Position numbers and translations under genes: made by a program
Virus record (IMG/VR): IMGVR_UViG_3300030085_001831
Span: 1-32,455 of that record
From: a virus
Taxonomy: Duplodnaviria; Caudoviricetes
Strand: one strand, 5' to 3'
DNA length: 32,455 nucleotides
Part shown: positions 2,429 to 13,141 of the stretch, piece after piece
Numbering within the stretch: the first letter of the stretch is position 1
How the letters are laid out: each line of letters starts with the position of its first letter
Notes under the pieces: generated by a model
Told to the model about the DNA's origin: nothing
Database searches by the model: none
Seen by the model: only the letters and a program-made list of their open reading frames with translations

Positions 2429-2640
2429 TAGATAACCCTCCATACACGGTATTCGTTTGAACTATGGCGACGAGTAGCGATCTTCATGCCACGGCGAGAA
2501 GCGGCATTCCTGATTGTCGCAATCTTACCAGCAGCGACCACAAAGCTATCGCCTACTTCCAGCTTATCCATCCAGTCCCACTTACCAGTTCTAGTGGTGG
2601 GTATAGGAAAGCCCTTCTCGATTTTAGGGTGATTAGCCAT
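2428..2640 (-). CDS. Small putative DNA-binding protein (IEKGFPIP...LEVGDSF type)
   Basis: 70 aa; basic; AAGGAGG RBS; motif common in small phage proteins. Confidence 0.75.
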   Translation of the reverse strand: MANHPKIEKGFPIPTTRTGKWDWMDKLEVGDSFVVAAGKIATIRNAASRRGMKIATRRHSSNEYRVWRVI

Positions 2641-3499
2641 CGTTATCCTCCTTTGGCTCAATGAGGCGACACGAGATAGTGCCGCTGCGTGATCGGGTCA
2701 CAGAGATCTTGTAACCCTTCATGTTGCCTGAACACGGATAGTCCATGCGTCTGCATCCTTCAGGCATCTTGGCTTTGATGAGTTGTTTGGCTGCGTCAGA
2801 CACAAGCTCGGATGACTTGGCAACAGAGATGTCGGCTGCATACATGTTGAGTTCAGCCTCACTGTTTTCTGTAAAGTCATCCATGTCACGCATGTCCTTG
2901 ATGACATACATGTCAGAGTGATCTGCTGGCGGCATTGCCATAGGCGCAGCCTCAACACCATTCTTGTACATGTTCCAGAAGTTGACACAGTTGTCGATAT
3001 ACATGCTGGCCCAGGACTGATCGAGAGTAAGCATACGCCACTCCATGCGGCAGCGAACACCGAACAGCGCTACGAGATAGCACCTGTCAGTACCGCTAAC
3101 GAGCATGTGATGCTGGCACTGAGGAGCATAGAAGTCAGCAAGCTCGTCCATGTCCTTGAATCCGAAGTGCGCCTTGATCTCCAGAGGAGCGTTGTCGCCA
3201 ACAACACGCCCATCAAAGGTAGAATGCAGAGGCACACCGTTACGGATAATAGTCTTGCCACCTCCACGGAAGTTGACCTGTCGCTTTTCAGCCTCGGCCC
3301 ACTTGTCGATGATGTATGGCTCCAAGTATGTTCCGGTATCCATAAGGAGCTGCGTCTGCTTTGAGAACTTAGCACGTTCTTCTCCCGCTTTCTGGCGCAT
3401 CAGAGTCATCCACTCTGCAATGTCGCCGCCAGCAATAATCTTGGCATCGGATGAGCCAATGTAAGTTGCACGTTCTTTCAGTTGAGCGTCAGTCAGCAT
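2633..3499 (-). CDS. YqaJ/lambda-exonuclease family protein
   Basis: IGSSDA, GTYLEP, STFDG, LEIK and YAPQCQHHM motifs; AGGAGG RBS before ATG 3499. Confidence 0.92.
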   Translation of the reverse strand: MLTDAQLKERATYIGSSDAKIIAGGDIAEWMTLMRQKAGEERAKFSKQTQLLMDTGTYLEPYIIDKWAEAEKRQVNFRGGGKTIIRNGVPLHSTFDGRVVGDNAPLEIKAHFGFKDMDELADFYAPQCQHHMLVSGTDRCYLVALFGVRCRMEWRMLTLDQSWASMYIDNCVNFWNMYKNGVEAAPMAMPPADHSDMYVIKDMRDMDDFTENSEAELNMYAADISVAKSSELVSDAAKQLIKAKMPEGCRRMDYPCSGNMKGYKISVTRSRSGTISCRLIEPKEDNDG

Positions 3500-3659
3500 C
3501 GTGTTCCTCCTGATATTCACGCCAGTTATCAACAAGCACTAGTTCCAGCCCATGCTCACATCCAATCTCTGTGGCTTGTGCATCAGCCTCTTCTCTTGTT
3601 GGTGCGTAAACCTCGAAGTAGTGATAGGTGTCGTACACCCATAGCTTATCCTTTCTCAT
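3489..3659 (-). CDS. Hypothetical 56-aa acidic protein (MRKDKLWVYDTYHYFEV...), not in the ORF track
   Basis: Translated by hand; ATGA overlap with the upstream stop; fills the gap exactly. Confidence 0.7.
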   Translation of the reverse strand: MRKDKLWVYDTYHYFEVYAPTREEADAQATEIGCEHGLELVLVDNWREYQEEHDAD

Positions 3660-4189: not shown

Positions 4190-4251
4190 GGTACTCCTTG
4201 AATGTCAATACACACTACCATATAGTTGGCTTGTTATCGAGGGCTAATGCT

Positions 4252-4482
4252 ATGTGCGAACAGCAGTTTACCTCTGATTTAATCAAGCAATTTCAACGCC
4301 GTAGATACGATCTTGGCATAACTCAGGTCGCTCTGGATTCCATGCTCGGAGTTTCCCCTGGTGTCGTAGCCAAGTGGGAAATCGGAAACAGGAAGCCAAC
4401 ATTGTTCAATGCGTACTGCTGGGCTGAAGCCCTTGGTTGCAACATAAAATTAGAGGTGCGAGATGATGATCTGCGGGATTGA
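4252..4482 (+). CDS. XRE/Cro-family helix-turn-helix regulator
   Basis: RRRYDLGITQVALDSMLGVSPGVVAKWEIGNRKPTL; ATG 4252 follows GAGGG. Confidence 0.9.
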   Translation: MCEQQFTSDLIKQFQRRRYDLGITQVALDSMLGVSPGVVAKWEIGNRKPTLFNAYCWAEALGCNIKLEVRDDDLRD

Positions 4483-5014
4483 CCCCGGTGTTACCGGAGG
4501 CATTGCGTTTTACAATGGGCTGGAGTTGTACGCCCATCGTGTTCCCACATCCAAACTAGCCAACAAGAAAATTTTGGATATGGAAGGTATTTGCAAACTG
4601 CTGGTGCAATACGAACCTGACATGGTTTTTATTGAACAGCAGCAAGCCATGCCGAGGCAGGGTGTAGCCAGCACCTTCAAGACTGGCTTTGGCTACGGAG
4701 TTTACATCGGCATATTGCACGCACTTGGCTATAGCTACACAGTCGTCATCCCACGGAAATGGAAGTCAGATCTGGGCGTGCCTAGCGATAAGGATATGGC
4801 CCGGCAACGAGCAACTGATCTCATGCCAATGGGAGAGAGCAGCTGGTCTCGCAAATGCGAAGACGGTGTTGCCGAGGCATCGTTGATTGCCTATTGGGGC
4901 TTGTACTGCGGCCAGTCACCCAGCGGATCGAAGACAGGATTCTTGTCCAAGAACTTTACCAAAGCCTCAATGCGAGCTTTCTTTGGTCCTGATGACACCT
5001 TGCCGAAGCAGTAA
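4463..5014 (+). CDS. RuvC-like Holliday junction resolvase
   Basis: GIDPG, VFIEQQ, STFKTGFGYG, PRKWK and DGVAEASLIA RNase H-fold motifs. Confidence 0.88.
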   Translation: MMICGIDPGVTGGIAFYNGLELYAHRVPTSKLANKKILDMEGICKLLVQYEPDMVFIEQQQAMPRQGVASTFKTGFGYGVYIGILHALGYSYTVVIPRKWKSDLGVPSDKDMARQRATDLMPMGESSWSRKCEDGVAEASLIAYWGLYCGQSPSGSKTGFLSKNFTKASMRAFFGPDDTLPKQ

Positions 5015-6516
5015 TCCTCAAGCATCTCGATCTGATTGATCTTGTACTTGTTCAGCCATTTGGCGTCTGGTTTGAACCATCCACGTTCACCTGACGCCCT
5101 GCTGAGAGAAGCAAAGTCTGGGATGATTTCCTTGATCGTGTCAGAGTAGAAGTCATACTTGCCCAGACCCGTGAGGCAACACGCAACAAATAACTTATCA
5201 AGCTCCAAATCTGGGAGATCAACGCAGTACTTGAGCGGTGTAGTGCCGTCAGCATCGAAAGCGTCTCTAGCAGCGTCAATGTGAGACTGTATACACGCCT
5301 CATGAAGCGGATGTACATAATCATCTGGGTACTCCTCACTGGGGAACAGCGTCTGGTGATCTGCATAGACATGACCGACGCGGTTGGTGTGGTTGTAAGT
5401 ATATCCGAGGGATCGATGACAAAGCAGAGCCTTCATGATCTTGACGTAGCCAAGCTCATTCTCGAAGATGCTGTCTTTCATGAAGTGTGCGTAGTAACCA
5501 GCAAGCAACGCTTCTTGAGGCTTTGACATTGTAAGAGGCGTTACTTCACCCTCTTCCTCTGCCTCGACCTCCTGTGCTTCCTGCTGCTCCTTGGTCTCAC
5601 GCATCACAAGTTCTTGGATGGTGACAGCAAAACGAGAGCTATTGTACTGGATGCACAGTATTTTGTCGGCAATGCCATATGTCTCATGATTTTCATCATA
5701 GACAGCGGTGAAGCCACGGCACTCAGGGTCATCCCAATAGAATGAGTCACGCAGTAGGATGGCGTCTGCGTATCCTTTTGCACGATACTCTTCAACCATG
5801 TTGAGCAATGCACCCTGCTGAAGAGCCTCAAACTCCTCAACATTGGTGATATATTCCTCATCACTGAAGAGATCTGACTCTATGTTCAGCTTGTCACGAT
5901 TCTTGTCTACATCAAACAAAGCGTGCTTGACCTCAATCTTCTTCAGAGTCATGAAATGTTTGATTGAGGCGATGTGGTAGTTGACGTTCTCTTCCAGATA
6001 CTTGTCCTGCGCTGCATGATCGCCAAGCGTCAGAGCCTCTGCCACGCCGATGTTGAAGTCATAAGCACGGAACATCTGCTTGGCTTTGTCAGACAGCTCA
6101 GCGAGGCCCACACGCTGTTTAACCCACTTGTCAGTTTGACCAAAGCGAGCAGCGACTGACACAAAGTCTTCACTGCCGTCTGCAACAAGCGCCATGATGA
6201 CATCACACTCGTCAAGCGGGTGCATGTTCTCACGCATCATGTTGGCATGGAGGCCAACCTCACGATCATCAGAGTCAAGAACCACACAGTTTACGAGCGT
6301 GTCTTTGTCCTTGTGTATCTGGCGCAATGCTTCGAGGCGACGGCCGCCATCGATGACGTTGTAGCCCTTGCCGTTCTTGACGACGACAAGATTATGAAGC
6401 AGGCCCTTGGCCCTGATTGAGGCGACAAGCTGCCAGTGACCTTCTTTACTGGCTTTTACTTGCCTCACATTGTAGGGACTCTGCTTGAGTTCCTTCAGCG
6501 GTATCTGCTGTTGCAT
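4891..6516 (-). CDS. Long ParB/Spo0J N-terminal-domain protein (plasmid type)
   Basis: SPYNVR, SIRAKGLLHNL, IDGGRRLEAL, ANMMRENMHPLDE, HTH VAARFGQTDKWVKQRVGLAELS; about 350-aa C-terminal extension. Confidence 0.9.
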   Translation of the reverse strand: MQQQIPLKELKQSPYNVRQVKASKEGHWQLVASIRAKGLLHNLVVVKNGKGYNVIDGGRRLEALRQIHKDKDTLVNCVVLDSDDREVGLHANMMRENMHPLDECDVIMALVADGSEDFVSVAARFGQTDKWVKQRVGLAELSDKAKQMFRAYDFNIGVAEALTLGDHAAQDKYLEENVNYHIASIKHFMTLKKIEVKHALFDVDKNRDKLNIESDLFSDEEYITNVEEFEALQQGALLNMVEEYRAKGYADAILLRDSFYWDDPECRGFTAVYDENHETYGIADKILCIQYNSSRFAVTIQELVMRETKEQQEAQEVEAEEEGEVTPLTMSKPQEALLAGYYAHFMKDSIFENELGYVKIMKALLCHRSLGYTYNHTNRVGHVYADHQTLFPSEEYPDDYVHPLHEACIQSHIDAARDAFDADGTTPLKYCVDLPDLELDKLFVACCLTGLGKYDFYSDTIKEIIPDFASLSRASGERGWFKPDAKWLNKYKINQIEMLEDYCFGKVSSGPKKARIEALVKFLDKNPVFDPLGDWPQYKPQ

Positions 6517-7543: not shown

Positions 7544-7960
7544 TTAGAATGGGATGTCGGTGTCGTCCACCTTCCCGCCAGCCGGGGCGTTACCACCCTC
7601 TGACTGGCTCCCACGGGAACCGAGGCGGAACGTCGAGCCAGCACCAGCCAGCTTGACCTTGAAGGAACGCTGAGTCTGGCCGTCCTTCTCGTACTCCTCG
7701 ATGATGGGTTGACCCTGAACGAACACGGTGCTGCCCTTCTTGAGGTACGGCTCGATGACGTTGGTGACGAGGCCTTTGCCATTGCCACCATCCCACGCTT
7801 CGCAGCGATACCAGTGGGTCTTTTCGACCTTCTCACCGGCCTTGTTGGTGTAGTTCTCGTTGACTGCGACAGAGAAGTTGGCAACCTTTGTGCCGTTCAC
7901 GTCACGGATCTCTGGGTCTGCACCAATGTTACCGGATACAGTGATCTGAGCGAAATTCAT
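7544..7960 (-). CDS. ssb: Single-stranded DNA-binding protein
   Basis: OB-fold motifs GNIGADPE, VANFSVAVN, THWYRCEAW, LKKGSTVFVQG; Gly-rich linker; acidic tail DDTDIPF. Confidence 0.97.
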   Translation of the reverse strand: MNFAQITVSGNIGADPEIRDVNGTKVANFSVAVNENYTNKAGEKVEKTHWYRCEAWDGGNGKGLVTNVIEPYLKKGSTVFVQGQPIIEEYEKDGQTQRSFKVKLAGAGSTFRLGSRGSQSEGGNAPAGGKVDDTDIPF

Positions 7961-8473: not shown

Positions 8474-9091
8474 TTACTCAAGGTGCATGCTGTCTGCACC
8501 ATGATCCTGATCGACTGGTGCCTCGACCAACCCTGTCTCCCGGGCAAATGTCCAGAAGTCATCCTTGTTGGCTTGGTACGTCTCCATAGTGAGCTGACCC
8601 TTCCTGGCCCTCATCCGCTGAACCTTGGGCAGATCCTTGAGCCGAGTATAAGCGCCGAAGCTGATGCCGCTGACGTCGATGGCGTGCTGCCTGACAGGGC
8701 CGCGAGCTACCTTGAACGCCTCGTTGATTGTCCACCACTGGACACGAAGGCGCTCAAGCTGCTCGTCGTACTGCTCGATGGTGTTCTGCGTGATCTCGAT
8801 ACCGACATCGTTGCGGATGGCCTTGGCACGCTCACGCTTGACCTGAACGGCACGGTTAGCGACGTTGTCGAGCATCTTCTCGAACATGCGGGGCAGCTGG
8901 TCGCCGAGCTTGGCCTGTATGATGACGTCGTTGCCGTCGTCGAACATGTCGATGACAGCCTTGAGACGGCTGGCAAGCTCACGACACCACCGTGCATGGT
9001 AGTCGTCGTCGGGCAGCTGATCTTTCTGCAGTGCCTTGGCGATGCGGTCAAGATTCTCAGGTGTCAGGTCGTCCATTGTCATCTCAGTCAT
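8474..9091 (-). CDS. Hypothetical helical protein, probably highly expressed
   Basis: 205 aa; GAGGAG RBS; strong C/G-ending codon bias like ssb. Confidence 0.88.
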   Translation of the reverse strand: MTEMTMDDLTPENLDRIAKALQKDQLPDDDYHARWCRELASRLKAVIDMFDDGNDVIIQAKLGDQLPRMFEKMLDNVANRAVQVKRERAKAIRNDVGIEITQNTIEQYDEQLERLRVQWWTINEAFKVARGPVRQHAIDVSGISFGAYTRLKDLPKVQRMRARKGQLTMETYQANKDDFWTFARETGLVEAPVDQDHGADSMHLE

Positions 9092-9490: not shown

Positions 9491-9688
9491 TCAGTCAAAG
9501 ATGTTGATATCAGAGTCGCTCATCTGCTCTGCAAGATCAGCAGCACGTTGCAGATCGCCTGACTCCAGTGCCAGACGAACCTCATCTGCTGCCCAGACAT
9601 CAGGCAGATCTGTGAACGAATGATGTGCGATGACGGTATCAGCAATGACCTCGGACTCATCGACCGGACGGAACTTGTATGGTTGCAT
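9491..9688 (-). CDS. Hypothetical acidic protein; first gene of the leftward arm
   Basis: 65 aa; AAGGAG RBS; D/E-rich. Confidence 0.82.
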   Translation of the reverse strand: MQPYKFRPVDESEVIADTVIAHHSFTDLPDVWAADEVRLALESGDLQRAADLAEQMSDSDINIFD

Positions 9689-9713
9689 GGTCTTTCTCCT
9701 TTACGTTTGACCA

Positions 9714-10254
9714 GTTCGCTACACACTCACAACGATTGGTAGCCTTGACCCCGCCGGACCACAGCAGGCTCGCAGCAGTCAAGCCCCTTGCCCGCAAGGG
9801 TGAATATTGTTTGGCCGGTATAGAACGAGATGATTGAGAAACATGAGCCGCGCTACTGCACGGCGACACCATACGGATCACACAAGATATGAGCCAAAGA
9901 ATATTCAGGGCTTTACTGATCGAGACTGAATGGGGTCATCATTTCATGATAGGCTAACAAATCGTTGTGTGTGTGTTTCAAGACAGAGAGTCGCCCTGTG
10001 GAGTTCGCTGATGTCCCCATCAGGACATCAGTGAAACACAGCGACGAACGGTAACGTGATGACTCGCATGTGAGTGTGTTAGCGGAACCCAGAATCTCAG
10101 CGGAAGGGCGGTGCGAGCCGACCTTTCACCTGAGATTATGATGGTGTCCGATTACTACGAATCATGCTGTTGATACGAGAACGAAAAGAAACGACACAGT
10201 AAGAACGTGATGTAGGTCAGGCTCCGCAGATGAGCTTTAGCTCAACCTGTGGAG
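9714..10254 (+). other. Large structured non-coding element (ssDNA promoter/origin or ncRNA)
   Basis: Nested inverted repeats 9721-9815 with 9893-9976; hairpins at 9990-10045, 10093-10137 and 10222-10254 with G-T pairs on the + strand; no credible ORF. Confidence 0.75.
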
Positions 10255-10260
10255 GAACAA

Positions 10261-10273
10261 TAACAATGGCTTA
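10261..10273 (+). promoter_or_regulatory. Possible IHF site
   Basis: TAACAAtggcTTA is one mismatch from WATCAANNNNTTR, just upstream of the terS promoter. Confidence 0.3.
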
Positions 10274-10284
10274 CAACAAGTGAC

Positions 10285-10315
10285 TTGACAGGGTTTTGAG
10301 AGGACTGTGTATACT
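10285..10315 (+). promoter_or_regulatory. Sigma70-type promoter for terS
   Basis: TTGACA-N19-TATACT, 26 nt before the ATG; the spacer is longer than optimal. Confidence 0.6.
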
Positions 10316-11600: not shown

Positions 11601-13141
11601 TGCAACTTGATTACAAACCACCCGGCCCCATAGCAAAAGCCTTTATGAAGGACGAGGCTTTTGTTCGGGGGATCAGGGGTCCTGTGGGATCTGGCAAGTC
11701 TGTCACTTGTTGCATGGAGATAATGCGCCGTGCAGTTAACCAGAAGCCAAATGAAGGTGGTATAAGGCGCTCAAGGTGGGCCGTTATCAGAAATACCAAT
11801 CCCCAGCTAAAAACCACCACGATCAAGACTTGGCGTGACTGGTTCTCAGACGAGATTGGCAAGTTTGTGTGGTCGCCTCCGTATACACATCTTGTCAATT
11901 TCTCTCTGGGGGATAAGACTACTGTTGAGCTTGAAGTCATCTTCTTGGCTTTGGATAAGCAGGAGGATGTTAAGAAGCTGCTGTCATTGGAACTTACAGG
12001 AGTATGGATCAATGAAGCACGAGAGATCCCTAAATCGATTGTGGACGCCTGCACCATGCGCGTGGGCCGCTTTCCCTCTATGCGTGATGGTGGGCCTTCT
12101 TGGTTTGGCGTTATCATGGACACAAACGCACCAGACGAGACGCACTGGTGGGGGATCATGTCAGGAGAAGTCCCAGCACCTGAATATATGGCAGAAGAAG
12201 AGAAGATCCTTCTAATCAAGCCAGATGACTGGATGTTTTTTTCCCAGCCAAGTGCCATGAAGGAGATCAAGAACCAATCCGGCGGTATTGAGGGCTATGA
12301 GCTAAACAACAAGAGGGAAAACAAAGAAAACCTCCAGCCCAACTATTATGACAAGATTATCCTTGGTAAGGCCCCGTCCTGGGTTAAGGTTTATGTACTA
12401 AATCAGTATCAGGCCCTAATGGACGGCAAGGCCGTCTATCAGTCATTCAGAAAGGAAGCCCATGTTGCCCAATCACCCATTGAGCCGATCGATGGCAGGG
12501 AGGTTATCGTTGGCATTGACTTTGGCCGCACGCCGTCGGCAATCTTTACGCAACAACTCCACTCGGGCAAGTGGACAGTATTCCACGAGGTTATCGGGCA
12601 GGACATGGGGGCAGGAAGGTTTGCGGATGTCCTCAAAAGAGAAATCACTCGACACGGATGGGACAAGCACGACTTCAAGTTCATAGGCGACCCTGCTGGC
12701 AACCAGATGGCCCAGACATCAGAGCAGACGCCGTTTATGATTTTAAGGGCGGCCGGCATTCAGGCTTATCCTGCGCCAAGCAACGACACACAGATACGCA
12801 TCGAAGCTGTCGATGGTGTCCTAAACAGGATGGTGGATGGCTATCCGTCAGTTGCAATCAGCCCGAATTGCACTGTGCTAATCTCTGGTTTTGAGGGTGG
12901 CTATCAATATAAGCGCCAGTATCACATGGGTAACGAGCGGTTTGAGGAAAGACCGTCGAAGAACAGGTTCTCTCATATTCACGATGCTCTCCAATATGCG
13001 TTCTTAGGGGGTGGTGAAGGTCGAAAGGTAGTGTTCGGTGGGAGTAAGCGGCCTTCCCATACAACCGTTGCGAGGGTTGGAAACCCTTTGGAGAGACAAA
13101 GAGAGCGTAATGGCTTCAAATCTAGGCGTCTCAGGGCATGA
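11600..13141 (+). CDS. terL: Terminase large subunit
   Basis: Walker A GPVGSGKS, Walker B VWINEA, coupling motif DTNAP, nuclease motifs GIDFG and HIHDALQY. Confidence 0.97.
   Translation: MQLDYKPPGPIAKAFMKDEAFVRGIRGPVGSGKSVTCCMEIMRRAVNQKPNEGGIRRSRWAVIRNTNPQLKTTTIKTWRDWFSDEIGKFVWSPPYTHLVNFSLGDKTTVELEVIFLALDKQEDVKKLLSLELTGVWINEAREIPKSIVDACTMRVGRFPSMRDGGPSWFGVIMDTNAPDETHWWGIMSGEVPAPEYMAEEEKILLIKPDDWMFFSQPSAMKEIKNQSGGIEGYELNNKRENKENLQPNYYDKIILGKAPSWVKVYVLNQYQALMDGKAVYQSFRKEAHVAQSPIEPIDGREVIVGIDFGRTPSAIFTQQLHSGKWTVFHEVIGQDMGAGRFADVLKREITRHGWDKHDFKFIGDPAGNQMAQTSEQTPFMILRAAGIQAYPAPSNDTQIRIEAVDGVLNRMVDGYPSVAISPNCTVLISGFEGGYQYKRQYHMGNERFEERPSKNRFSHIHDALQYAFLGGGEGRKVVFGGSKRPSHTTVARVGNPLERQRERNGFKSRRLRA

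Follow-up and report, generated by a model that had tools for sequence, protein, structure and literature searches.

Promoters that act in single-stranded DNA (ssDNA) are known from conjugative plasmids because these plasmids enter cells as ssDNA, and for a tailed phage with a double-stranded DNA genome there is no textbook need for such a promoter. Work by Masai and Arai from 1997 is cited for the Frpo/ssi elements of class 1. The minus-strand origin of M13 and the sso sites of plasmids are likewise hairpin-rich signals in ssDNA, which are primed by host enzymes and belong to ssDNA or rolling-circle replicons. Here we analyse a 32,455-nt stretch of phage DNA (the window; IMG/VR record IMGVR_UViG_3300030085_001831), in which 256 bases (9721–9976) fold back on themselves on the + strand, from which the leftward early genes are transcribed.

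The class 1 ssDNA promoters comprise Frpo1/Frpo2 (ssp1a/b) of F and ssi1–3 of ColIb-P9/pESBL (PMC9849209, PMC12672017, PMC11541004). As described in the relevant sections of these reports, they resemble the phage locus in that the template strand forms a long hairpin with imperfect pairing and with the gene on the side of the 5' arm, in which the -35 duplex lies toward the apex, an A/T helix lies beyond it, and a degenerate -10 is found near the helix end. The F Frpo2 operon, as described there, also resembles the phage operon in carrying ssb and a ParB-like gene. Class 1 elements differ, however, in lying by oriT in a conjugative leading region, whereas the phage has neither a relaxase nor an oriT; moreover, the template of the -35 reads GTCC in class 1 and GTCAA in the phage element, which is present in one copy per genome. 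The class 2 (ssp2) and class 3 elements of F and pESBL are unrelated hairpins that, in the portions of the reports concerned with them, serve as ssDNA promoters near the first gene (PMC12672017, PMC13478746, 10.64898/2026.01.09.698686), and they differ from the phage element in being G+C-rich and in their plasmid context. A first-pass annotation of the window had ascribed to the fold-back the architecture of an Frpo/ssi site. The folded geometry is indeed shared, but no sequence homology accompanies it: local alignment of eight elements with F Frpo2, the one class 1 element aligned, gave z-scores of at most 0.9, alignment with F ssp2 gave nothing significant (z ≤1.2), and profiles of the phage family found nothing in the 48–68 kb region of F. 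By analogy, the element would work like Frpo and the plasmid promoters of classes 1–3 without being a member of any of them by sequence.

Other systems offer partial parallels. 6S RNA is rod-shaped, binds the holoenzyme through an open bubble and serves as a template that is read toward its own 5' end (PMC8876501, in the part that treats this geometry); unlike 6S RNA, the phage element has no Rfam 6S match and no conserved RNA promoter or terminator, and it carries variable branched inserts. The complementary-strand origin of G4 (annotated in NC_001420) is another hairpin-rich ssDNA signal and shares an 8-mer at its primer start with the phage element, although the context of this motif differs and the motif is optional in the phage element. 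Like the window, HTVC010P-type pelagiphages have divergent early and late arms and, in the genome descriptions of PMC8477408, no RNA or DNA polymerase; their G+C content and that of pelagiphage Hodr, at 29–36%, differ from the ~48% of the window phage. Hodr (OQ414635), the closest cultured phage by TerL (59% identity), carries at the same place a near-perfect inverted repeat of unrelated sequence, which matches no family profile. In this repeat of ~190 nt (L081, ~12190–12380), the ribosome-binding site and ATG that begin the first early gene are paired with an inverted copy of themselves. For tailed phages, we found no description of an ssDNA promoter of this kind in the open-licence PMC and bioRxiv literature, in agreement with what the annotation had supposed; the "Frpo" of PMC13532299 is, in the passage where it occurs, the name of a phage.

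Results

The window represents most of the genome of a marine podophage, about 2–4 kb of which is missing. At the head of the leftward early arm, on the - strand, is a gene for a 65-aa protein without family (9491–9700, including its ribosome-binding site), and the arm goes on to encode ssb (7544–7960), a 541-aa ParB-like protein (4891–6516), a RecE-like protein (2633–3535) and Sak (1826–2443), while the rightward arm carries terS, terL, portal, capsid, tail and internal virion protein genes. On the opposite strand within the early arm (4198–5014, +) lie an HTH repressor-like gene (4198–4482) and a Holliday-junction resolvase gene. The fold-back sits between the first early ATG at 9688 and a rightward duplex promoter at 10285–10315, with 32 nt separating the ATG from the stem, so that the closeness to the first early gene noted in the annotation holds.

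The ParB-like protein is conserved across the first clade and matches at least 5000 plasmids, most of them conjugative. It shares 29% identity with F YfjB/HerB in the N-terminal part only, over its first 237 residues. Membership of HerB is defined by coverage of all four HerB domains (10.64898/2026.07.07.736705); BLAST matches of the phage protein extend over about residues 5–221, short of the four domains, and no plasmid match covers 80%. Close behind the fold-back, the first clade also conserves an all-helical protein of 205 aa (8474–9091, -; pLDDT 77), which was considered as a candidate initiator; no match to a known family, the Atlas or the PDB supports that role. The 45 open reading frames of the window, many of which are small and without assignment, include no recognisable polymerase, primase, helicase or initiator, nor were these functions found in 35 further reading frames from five relatives that are 98–100% complete and one further locus; no Rep/HUH protein was found in the phage. 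In line with the annotation's description of a primase-less phage, no primase was recognised in the clade of the window, but a carrier of the element in a second clade encodes a lambda-O-like initiator. When GTDB genomes were searched for a host or prophage with a TerS profile, 0/56 candidates were confirmed, and of the 19 stretches returned by a motif scan none scored as an element. In a list of 23 sequencing runs, a small share fell to two RNA runs and to a third of doubtful kind; no RNA contig covered 9721–9945 and one covered 9946–10166 at low depth, these contigs carrying neither strand nor start information.

The six helices that had been proposed for the fold-back are all present on the + strand at their coordinates and with their pair counts: 9721–9737/9960–9976 (16/17 paired), 9740–9745/9951–9956 (6/6), 9746–9752/9932–9938 (7/7), 9769–9772/9921–9924 (4/4), 9776–9786/9908–9918 (10/11) and 9801–9815/9893–9907 (14/15). 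The sequence motifs were confirmed in the same way. TTTACT at 9912–9917 would be the non-template strand of the -35, with a C·T mismatch at -33 against its template strand, AGTCAA at 9777–9782; CATCAT at 9937–9942, after a 19-nt spacer, resembles a -10 and stands where the trunk ends, with ATGATA coming after it up to 9951 and able to pair weakly with the box (5 bp); and the A/T tract lies at 9896–9907. The helix to which this tract belongs (5' arm 9801–9815) lies distal to the -35 and may be UP-like, and such an A/T-rich helix occurs in the window and in both alignments. Beyond it is an exchangeable apical domain (9816–9892) with a small hairpin module at 9845–9867. At the other end, the (CA)n-rich 5' arm of the basal stem (9721–9745) pairs with 9951–9976, which has (GT)n at its end, and would form the downstream duplex of the predicted promoter. 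From this geometry, transcription is predicted to start near 9745 (9743–9747, -), so that the leader ahead of the first early ATG (9688) would be ~57 nt long.

Both strands were folded against shuffled controls, as had been suggested, and the stretch 9715–9982 was more stable than 200/200 dinucleotide shuffles in all four modes. As DNA, the + strand folds at -61 kcal/mol (z -8.1), and the z-scores for the - strand as DNA and for the + and - strands as RNA were -6.5, -5.6 and -5.4, respectively. The -10 had been placed exactly where pairing breaks. The trunk does end at CATCAT, but in the structure of minimum energy C9937 and A9938 are still paired, with 9747 and 9746. In an alternative register, which costs 0.2 kcal/mol (-60.5 versus -60.7 at the minimum), 9757–9760 at the edge of a C-rich template-arm loop facing the -10 (9746–9760) pair with 9934–9937 and can close a fork at -12, so that the trunk stops at C(-12) with a template spacer of 19 nt. 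Here ATCAT (9938–9942) and 9946–9950 make up a weak side hairpin of 5 bp (-1.6 kcal/mol), and the -10 would thus be free of the template arm but perhaps not single-stranded. Searches with the element returned nothing from Rfam at E≤5 other than one chance match, and no match by blastn against phages or plasmids.

We then turned to relatives found by a TerS search. From the best 80 of 120 relatives we obtained 58 non-redundant loci that extend 600 nt or more upstream, one of them being that of the window itself, and with the (GT)n tail as anchor a fold-back closed by this tail was found in 52/58. Inspection of the six misses revealed that two are cut at contig ends, two exceed the search span and two have, in the position of the element, a long fold-back of another kind. 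In the latter two (L025:2365–2646 and L028:2428–2709) this other fold-back is without GTCAA; its likeness to Frpo2 was considered and is not significant. Below 90% identity the 52 loci reduce to 35 elements of 232–370 nt, which are 48–81% identical to the window element and all of which (35/35) have 18–34 nt between the stem base and the first leftward ATG. A profile search of eight family genomes found a single locus in each, one match being weak, and near-identical phages were seen to retain the arms while the apex is swapped. Furthermore, a second clade carries the same element, with TerS at 34–42% and capsid at 47–48% identity and a different first gene; a complete genome of this clade that bears the element is the one that encodes the lambda-O-like initiator. 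One carrier, G010, is temperate, with integrase, excisionase and repressor genes (L231:707–4348; element in L214), and has the variant AGTCCA and a (GTT)n tail.

A motif built from the 3' arm alone gave a further view of the family. It matched 121 loci, and we removed 38 of these as duplicates and 11 because their flanks were short. A paired GTCAA partner was present in 17/21 loci near a family protein, some of which come from phages already included in the first set, versus 4/51 without such a protein. Since these four show both the (GT)n tail and the complete fold and are themselves family elements, 0/47 chance matches of the motif show the partner.

Covariation in related phages, another check that had been suggested, was found in sets of both 13 and 17 sequences. 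The p-values are nominal, since we compared mosaic relatives, took the structures from these same sequences and set the position windows with the data already in view. In the 13 sequences, 27/54 pairs had changed on both sides, compared with a mean of 13.6 in shuffles (0/500 as high); all nine pairs of the spacer helix showed such two-sided change, and 92% of positions were paired as against 28–52% in slid controls. In the 17 sequences, two-sided change was seen in 87 cells versus 39.9 in shuffles (0/500), while two of the five measures were weak: the count of pairs was 24 versus 20.0 (20/500), and no excess of additional pair types was seen (213/500). This set excludes 5/35 elements whose inserts were misplaced by MAFFT, and its pairs were counted on the window's own structure, RNAalifold having missed most of the trunk of the MAFFT alignment through shifted registers. 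Across the 17 sequences the four paired positions of GTCAA/TTKAC were without two-sided change, which their flanks did show.

The annotation had polymerase copying the + strand, and the mismatches tolerated in the stems single out the same strand as the folded one. Strand-neutral folds of the 35 elements contain 149 single mismatches, with 42 G·T versus nine A·C and 23 G·G versus one C·C, where shuffles gave eight G·T versus 15 A·C. Called element by element, the bias favoured the + strand 22 times and the - strand twice, with 11 ties, in counts that come from related sequences and are not independent; the window element alone carries no strand signal (zero G·T, one A·C). In addition, the + strand folds lower in 35/35 elements, by a mean of -7.3 kcal/mol as compared with -1.0 in shuffles. 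Taken together, these data imply that the folded strand is the template of the early genes rather than early mRNA. The mismatch test is blind to DNA versus RNA, and F was uninformative as a control; the hairpin loops, with no UUCG and two GNA triloops on the + strand, do not separate DNA from RNA by loop type.

To locate the -35, we used a fixed-position rule. Exact GTCAA lies 50–62 nt from the stem base in 29/35 elements, where 0.68 would be expected over this range, itself chosen after viewing, and is absent from the other 6/35. Its partner is TTTAC in 23 cases, TTGAC in five and TTGAT in one, and the mean pairing probability of GTCAA with its partner exceeds 0.5 in 24/29. It follows that the template side of the -35 is fixed and the C·T mismatch at -33, with T on the non-template strand, is tolerated in 23/29. 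Sigma region 4 makes base contacts to the template at -31 and -33, according to the contacts described in PMC2613000, and a fixed template GTCAA is consistent with such read-out.

The trunk ends 15–19 template nt beyond the -35 in a fork, that is, a paired pyrimidine followed by an A unpaired with the template arm (Y/A), in 18/29 elements, and such forks were found at 18/31 helix ends at 15–19 nt compared with 24/262 elsewhere. Their hexamers are CATCAT (nine), TAACCT (three), CACAAT (two) and TATCAT, TAAACT, TAGCCC and TAAAAC (one each), with T at -7 in 16/18, and the template base at the predicted +1 is a pyrimidine in 15/18. The Y/A fork and T-7 fit the binding of a fork junction at -12/-11 by holoenzyme through A-11 and T-7. 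At the thresholds used, 11/29 have no Y/A fork, the window's own being among them at the probability cut-off, and in 5/18 forks A-11 is mostly tied up in a side hairpin in which the -10 pairs with the inverted repeat that follows. Along the linear + strand the boxes are 16–20 nt apart in 10/18 forks and 26–79 nt apart in 8/18, where side arms are looped out; in the latter, the boxes therefore align only in the folded state. A matching duplex -10 for the leftward -35 had been reported missing, and across the family the duplex - strand has YA at 15–19 nt in just 3/29. Consensus leftward duplex promoters occur in 6/35 regions, scattered and none of them in the window, and no conserved one was found across the 35 regions.

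On the rightward side, a promoter-like duplex site precedes terS (10285–10315, +; TTGACA-N19-TATACT), and the loci of all 35 elements (35/35) have TTGACA-N19-TATA(A/C)T with the same 19-nt spacer, a regularity that makes the 19-nt spacing of the fold-back boxes typical of the phage group. The spacer before terS may reflect a requirement for an activator or a property of the host polymerase; its sequence is variable and non-palindromic, and the corresponding site of Hodr has 17 nt. In the window's class the + strand as duplex also reads TTTACT-N19-CATCAT, a possible rightward promoter to which the annotation did not point, and the 10/18 forks with boxes 16–20 nt apart are possibly rightward duplex promoters too. 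The distance from element to terS is 165–620 nt. In the window this hairpin-rich, variable spacer (9977–10270, +) appears as a patchwork of hairpin cassettes exchanged among relatives, and it too has a + folding bias (13 G·T and no A·C in 34 regions). The apical module at 9845–9867 is optional, occurring in 14/35 elements, and has an 8-mer in common with the annotated primer start of G4, while its flanks resemble one short motif of the F ssp2 region. As a G4-type primase site the module is a weak lead; its CTG lies inside the hairpin, unlike that of G4.

Discussion

Judged by its conservation, covariation and mismatches, the fold-back is a real, conserved and strand-specific element. We consider it probable that the folded + strand acts as an ssDNA promoter at which the host housekeeping RNA polymerase starts the leftward early operon. 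Polymerase would start near 9745 only while the + strand is unpaired from its complement, binding the fold as a pre-opened fork and then unwinding the basal stem, and the resulting transcript would cover ssb, the ParB-like gene, the RecE-like gene and Sak until restoration of the duplex switched the promoter off. The annotation had envisaged a combined promoter and origin. Covariation, strand, the folded boxes and the lack of a duplex -10 argue for the promoter part; the origin part is less supported, as an origin role would not be needed everywhere, given the lambda-O-like initiator of the second-clade carrier. Priming by the transcript is nonetheless plausible by analogy, and the transcript may prime the - strand as Frpo transcripts do.

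Where the ssDNA would come from is the least certain step. Our preferred guess is 5'-to-3' resection, or entry of one strand, at the right-hand virion end: if the end ejected first lies right of the element, 5'-to-3' resection or 3'-first import would leave the + strand. Contig ends fall within 200 nt upstream of terS in 7/68 cases versus 2.3 expected (p 0.0075), but they are staggered and explicable by mosaic breaks, and the large internal virion proteins suggest ordinary duplex ejection, against a single-strand stage. An unlikely, more specific scenario is an entry like conjugation, in which the first-ejected end would arrive as a single + strand or be resected, and the hairpin promoter would drive a "leading region" of ssb, ParB-like, annealase and exonuclease genes and prime the missing strand. 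A variant of it would use host competence-type import, as in gene transfer agents, for which ComEC/ComF are described as required for the movement of DNA from periplasm to cytoplasm in the relevant part of PMC12378983; this serves as precedent only.

Several other readings have to be weighed against that of a promoter. The element could be mainly a priming signal, an ssi- or sso-like origin at which polymerase or host primase primes the displaced + strand while the early genes use another promoter. This would suit a phage in which no polymerase, primase, helicase or initiator is found in the reading frames of the window or in those examined in relatives, the single copy of the element per genome, the 8-mer shared by the apical module and the annotated G4 primer start, and the priming by Frpo transcripts in vivo described in the section of 10.64898/2026.01.09.698686 that deals with it. 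Yet the constant 18–34 nt to a ribosome-binding site and ATG and the lack of any other conserved leftward promoter (6/35, scattered) both point to mRNA, one carrier has an O-like initiator, and the apical module is present in just 14/35 with its CTG in a hairpin, unlike G4, and we regard the reading as improbable. We are equally doubtful that the fold acts as a + strand RNA, whether as a 6S-like decoy that captures holoenzyme or within a longer non-coding RNA (~9714–10254). The + strand does fold well as RNA (z -5.6), GNRA loops number ten on + versus one on - (93 loops), the right-hand spacer shares the + bias, a YAnnnT hexamer stands 6–16 nt ahead of the stem in 18/35, and 6S RNA, as described in part in PMC8876501, shares the open-promoter geometry and templates short product RNAs. 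This hexamer, however, is accompanied by a -35 in 3/35 only, in the window no terminator with a U tail was found after the stem, Rfam gave no match at E≤5 except one by chance, and both the element, at 232–370 nt with branched inserts, and its right-hand part, at 165–620 nt, vary in length. Moreover, an RNA would not need a constant 18–34 nt to an ATG on the opposite strand, and conservation of the exact template bases of the -35 would suit base read-out in a DNA groove.

It is less likely still that the fold forms without a long ssDNA state, through supercoiling, SSB or a transient intermediate of replication or recombination, or that it is a replication roadblock that times early expression. 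The operon does encode SSB, a RecE-like exonuclease and Sak, and F ssp2 is, in the passages of 10.64898/2026.01.09.698686 devoted to it, both promoter and roadblock; against this, extrusion of a cruciform would be costly for imperfect arms that lie 250 nt from each other and favour one strand, and a roadblock has no need of -35/-10 geometry. Least credible to us is the view that the boxes (TTTACT-N19-CATCAT) act in duplex DNA as a normal rightward promoter and ATCAT-nnn-ATGAT as its palindromic operator, the fold serving packaging, recombination or some other use. The linear spacing of 16–20 nt in 10/18 forks, the 19-nt spacer that the clear promoter before terS likewise has (35/35) and the HTH repressor-like gene at 4198–4482 speak in its favour, but the spacing is 26–79 nt in 8/18, TTTAC as duplex loses the template C at -33, and the invariant GTCAA of the far arm and its pairing are left unexplained.

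If the fold-back does act as an ssDNA promoter, and is the only early promoter, infection must start with a stage in which DNA near the genome end is single-stranded, and this would bear on entry, circularisation and the start of replication in marine podophages without polymerases of their own. The element is small, and its natural variants provide compensatory pairs. The family as a whole offers many diverged candidates for ssDNA promoters, from which design rules might be drawn, such as a -35 read on the template strand and a pre-formed fork.
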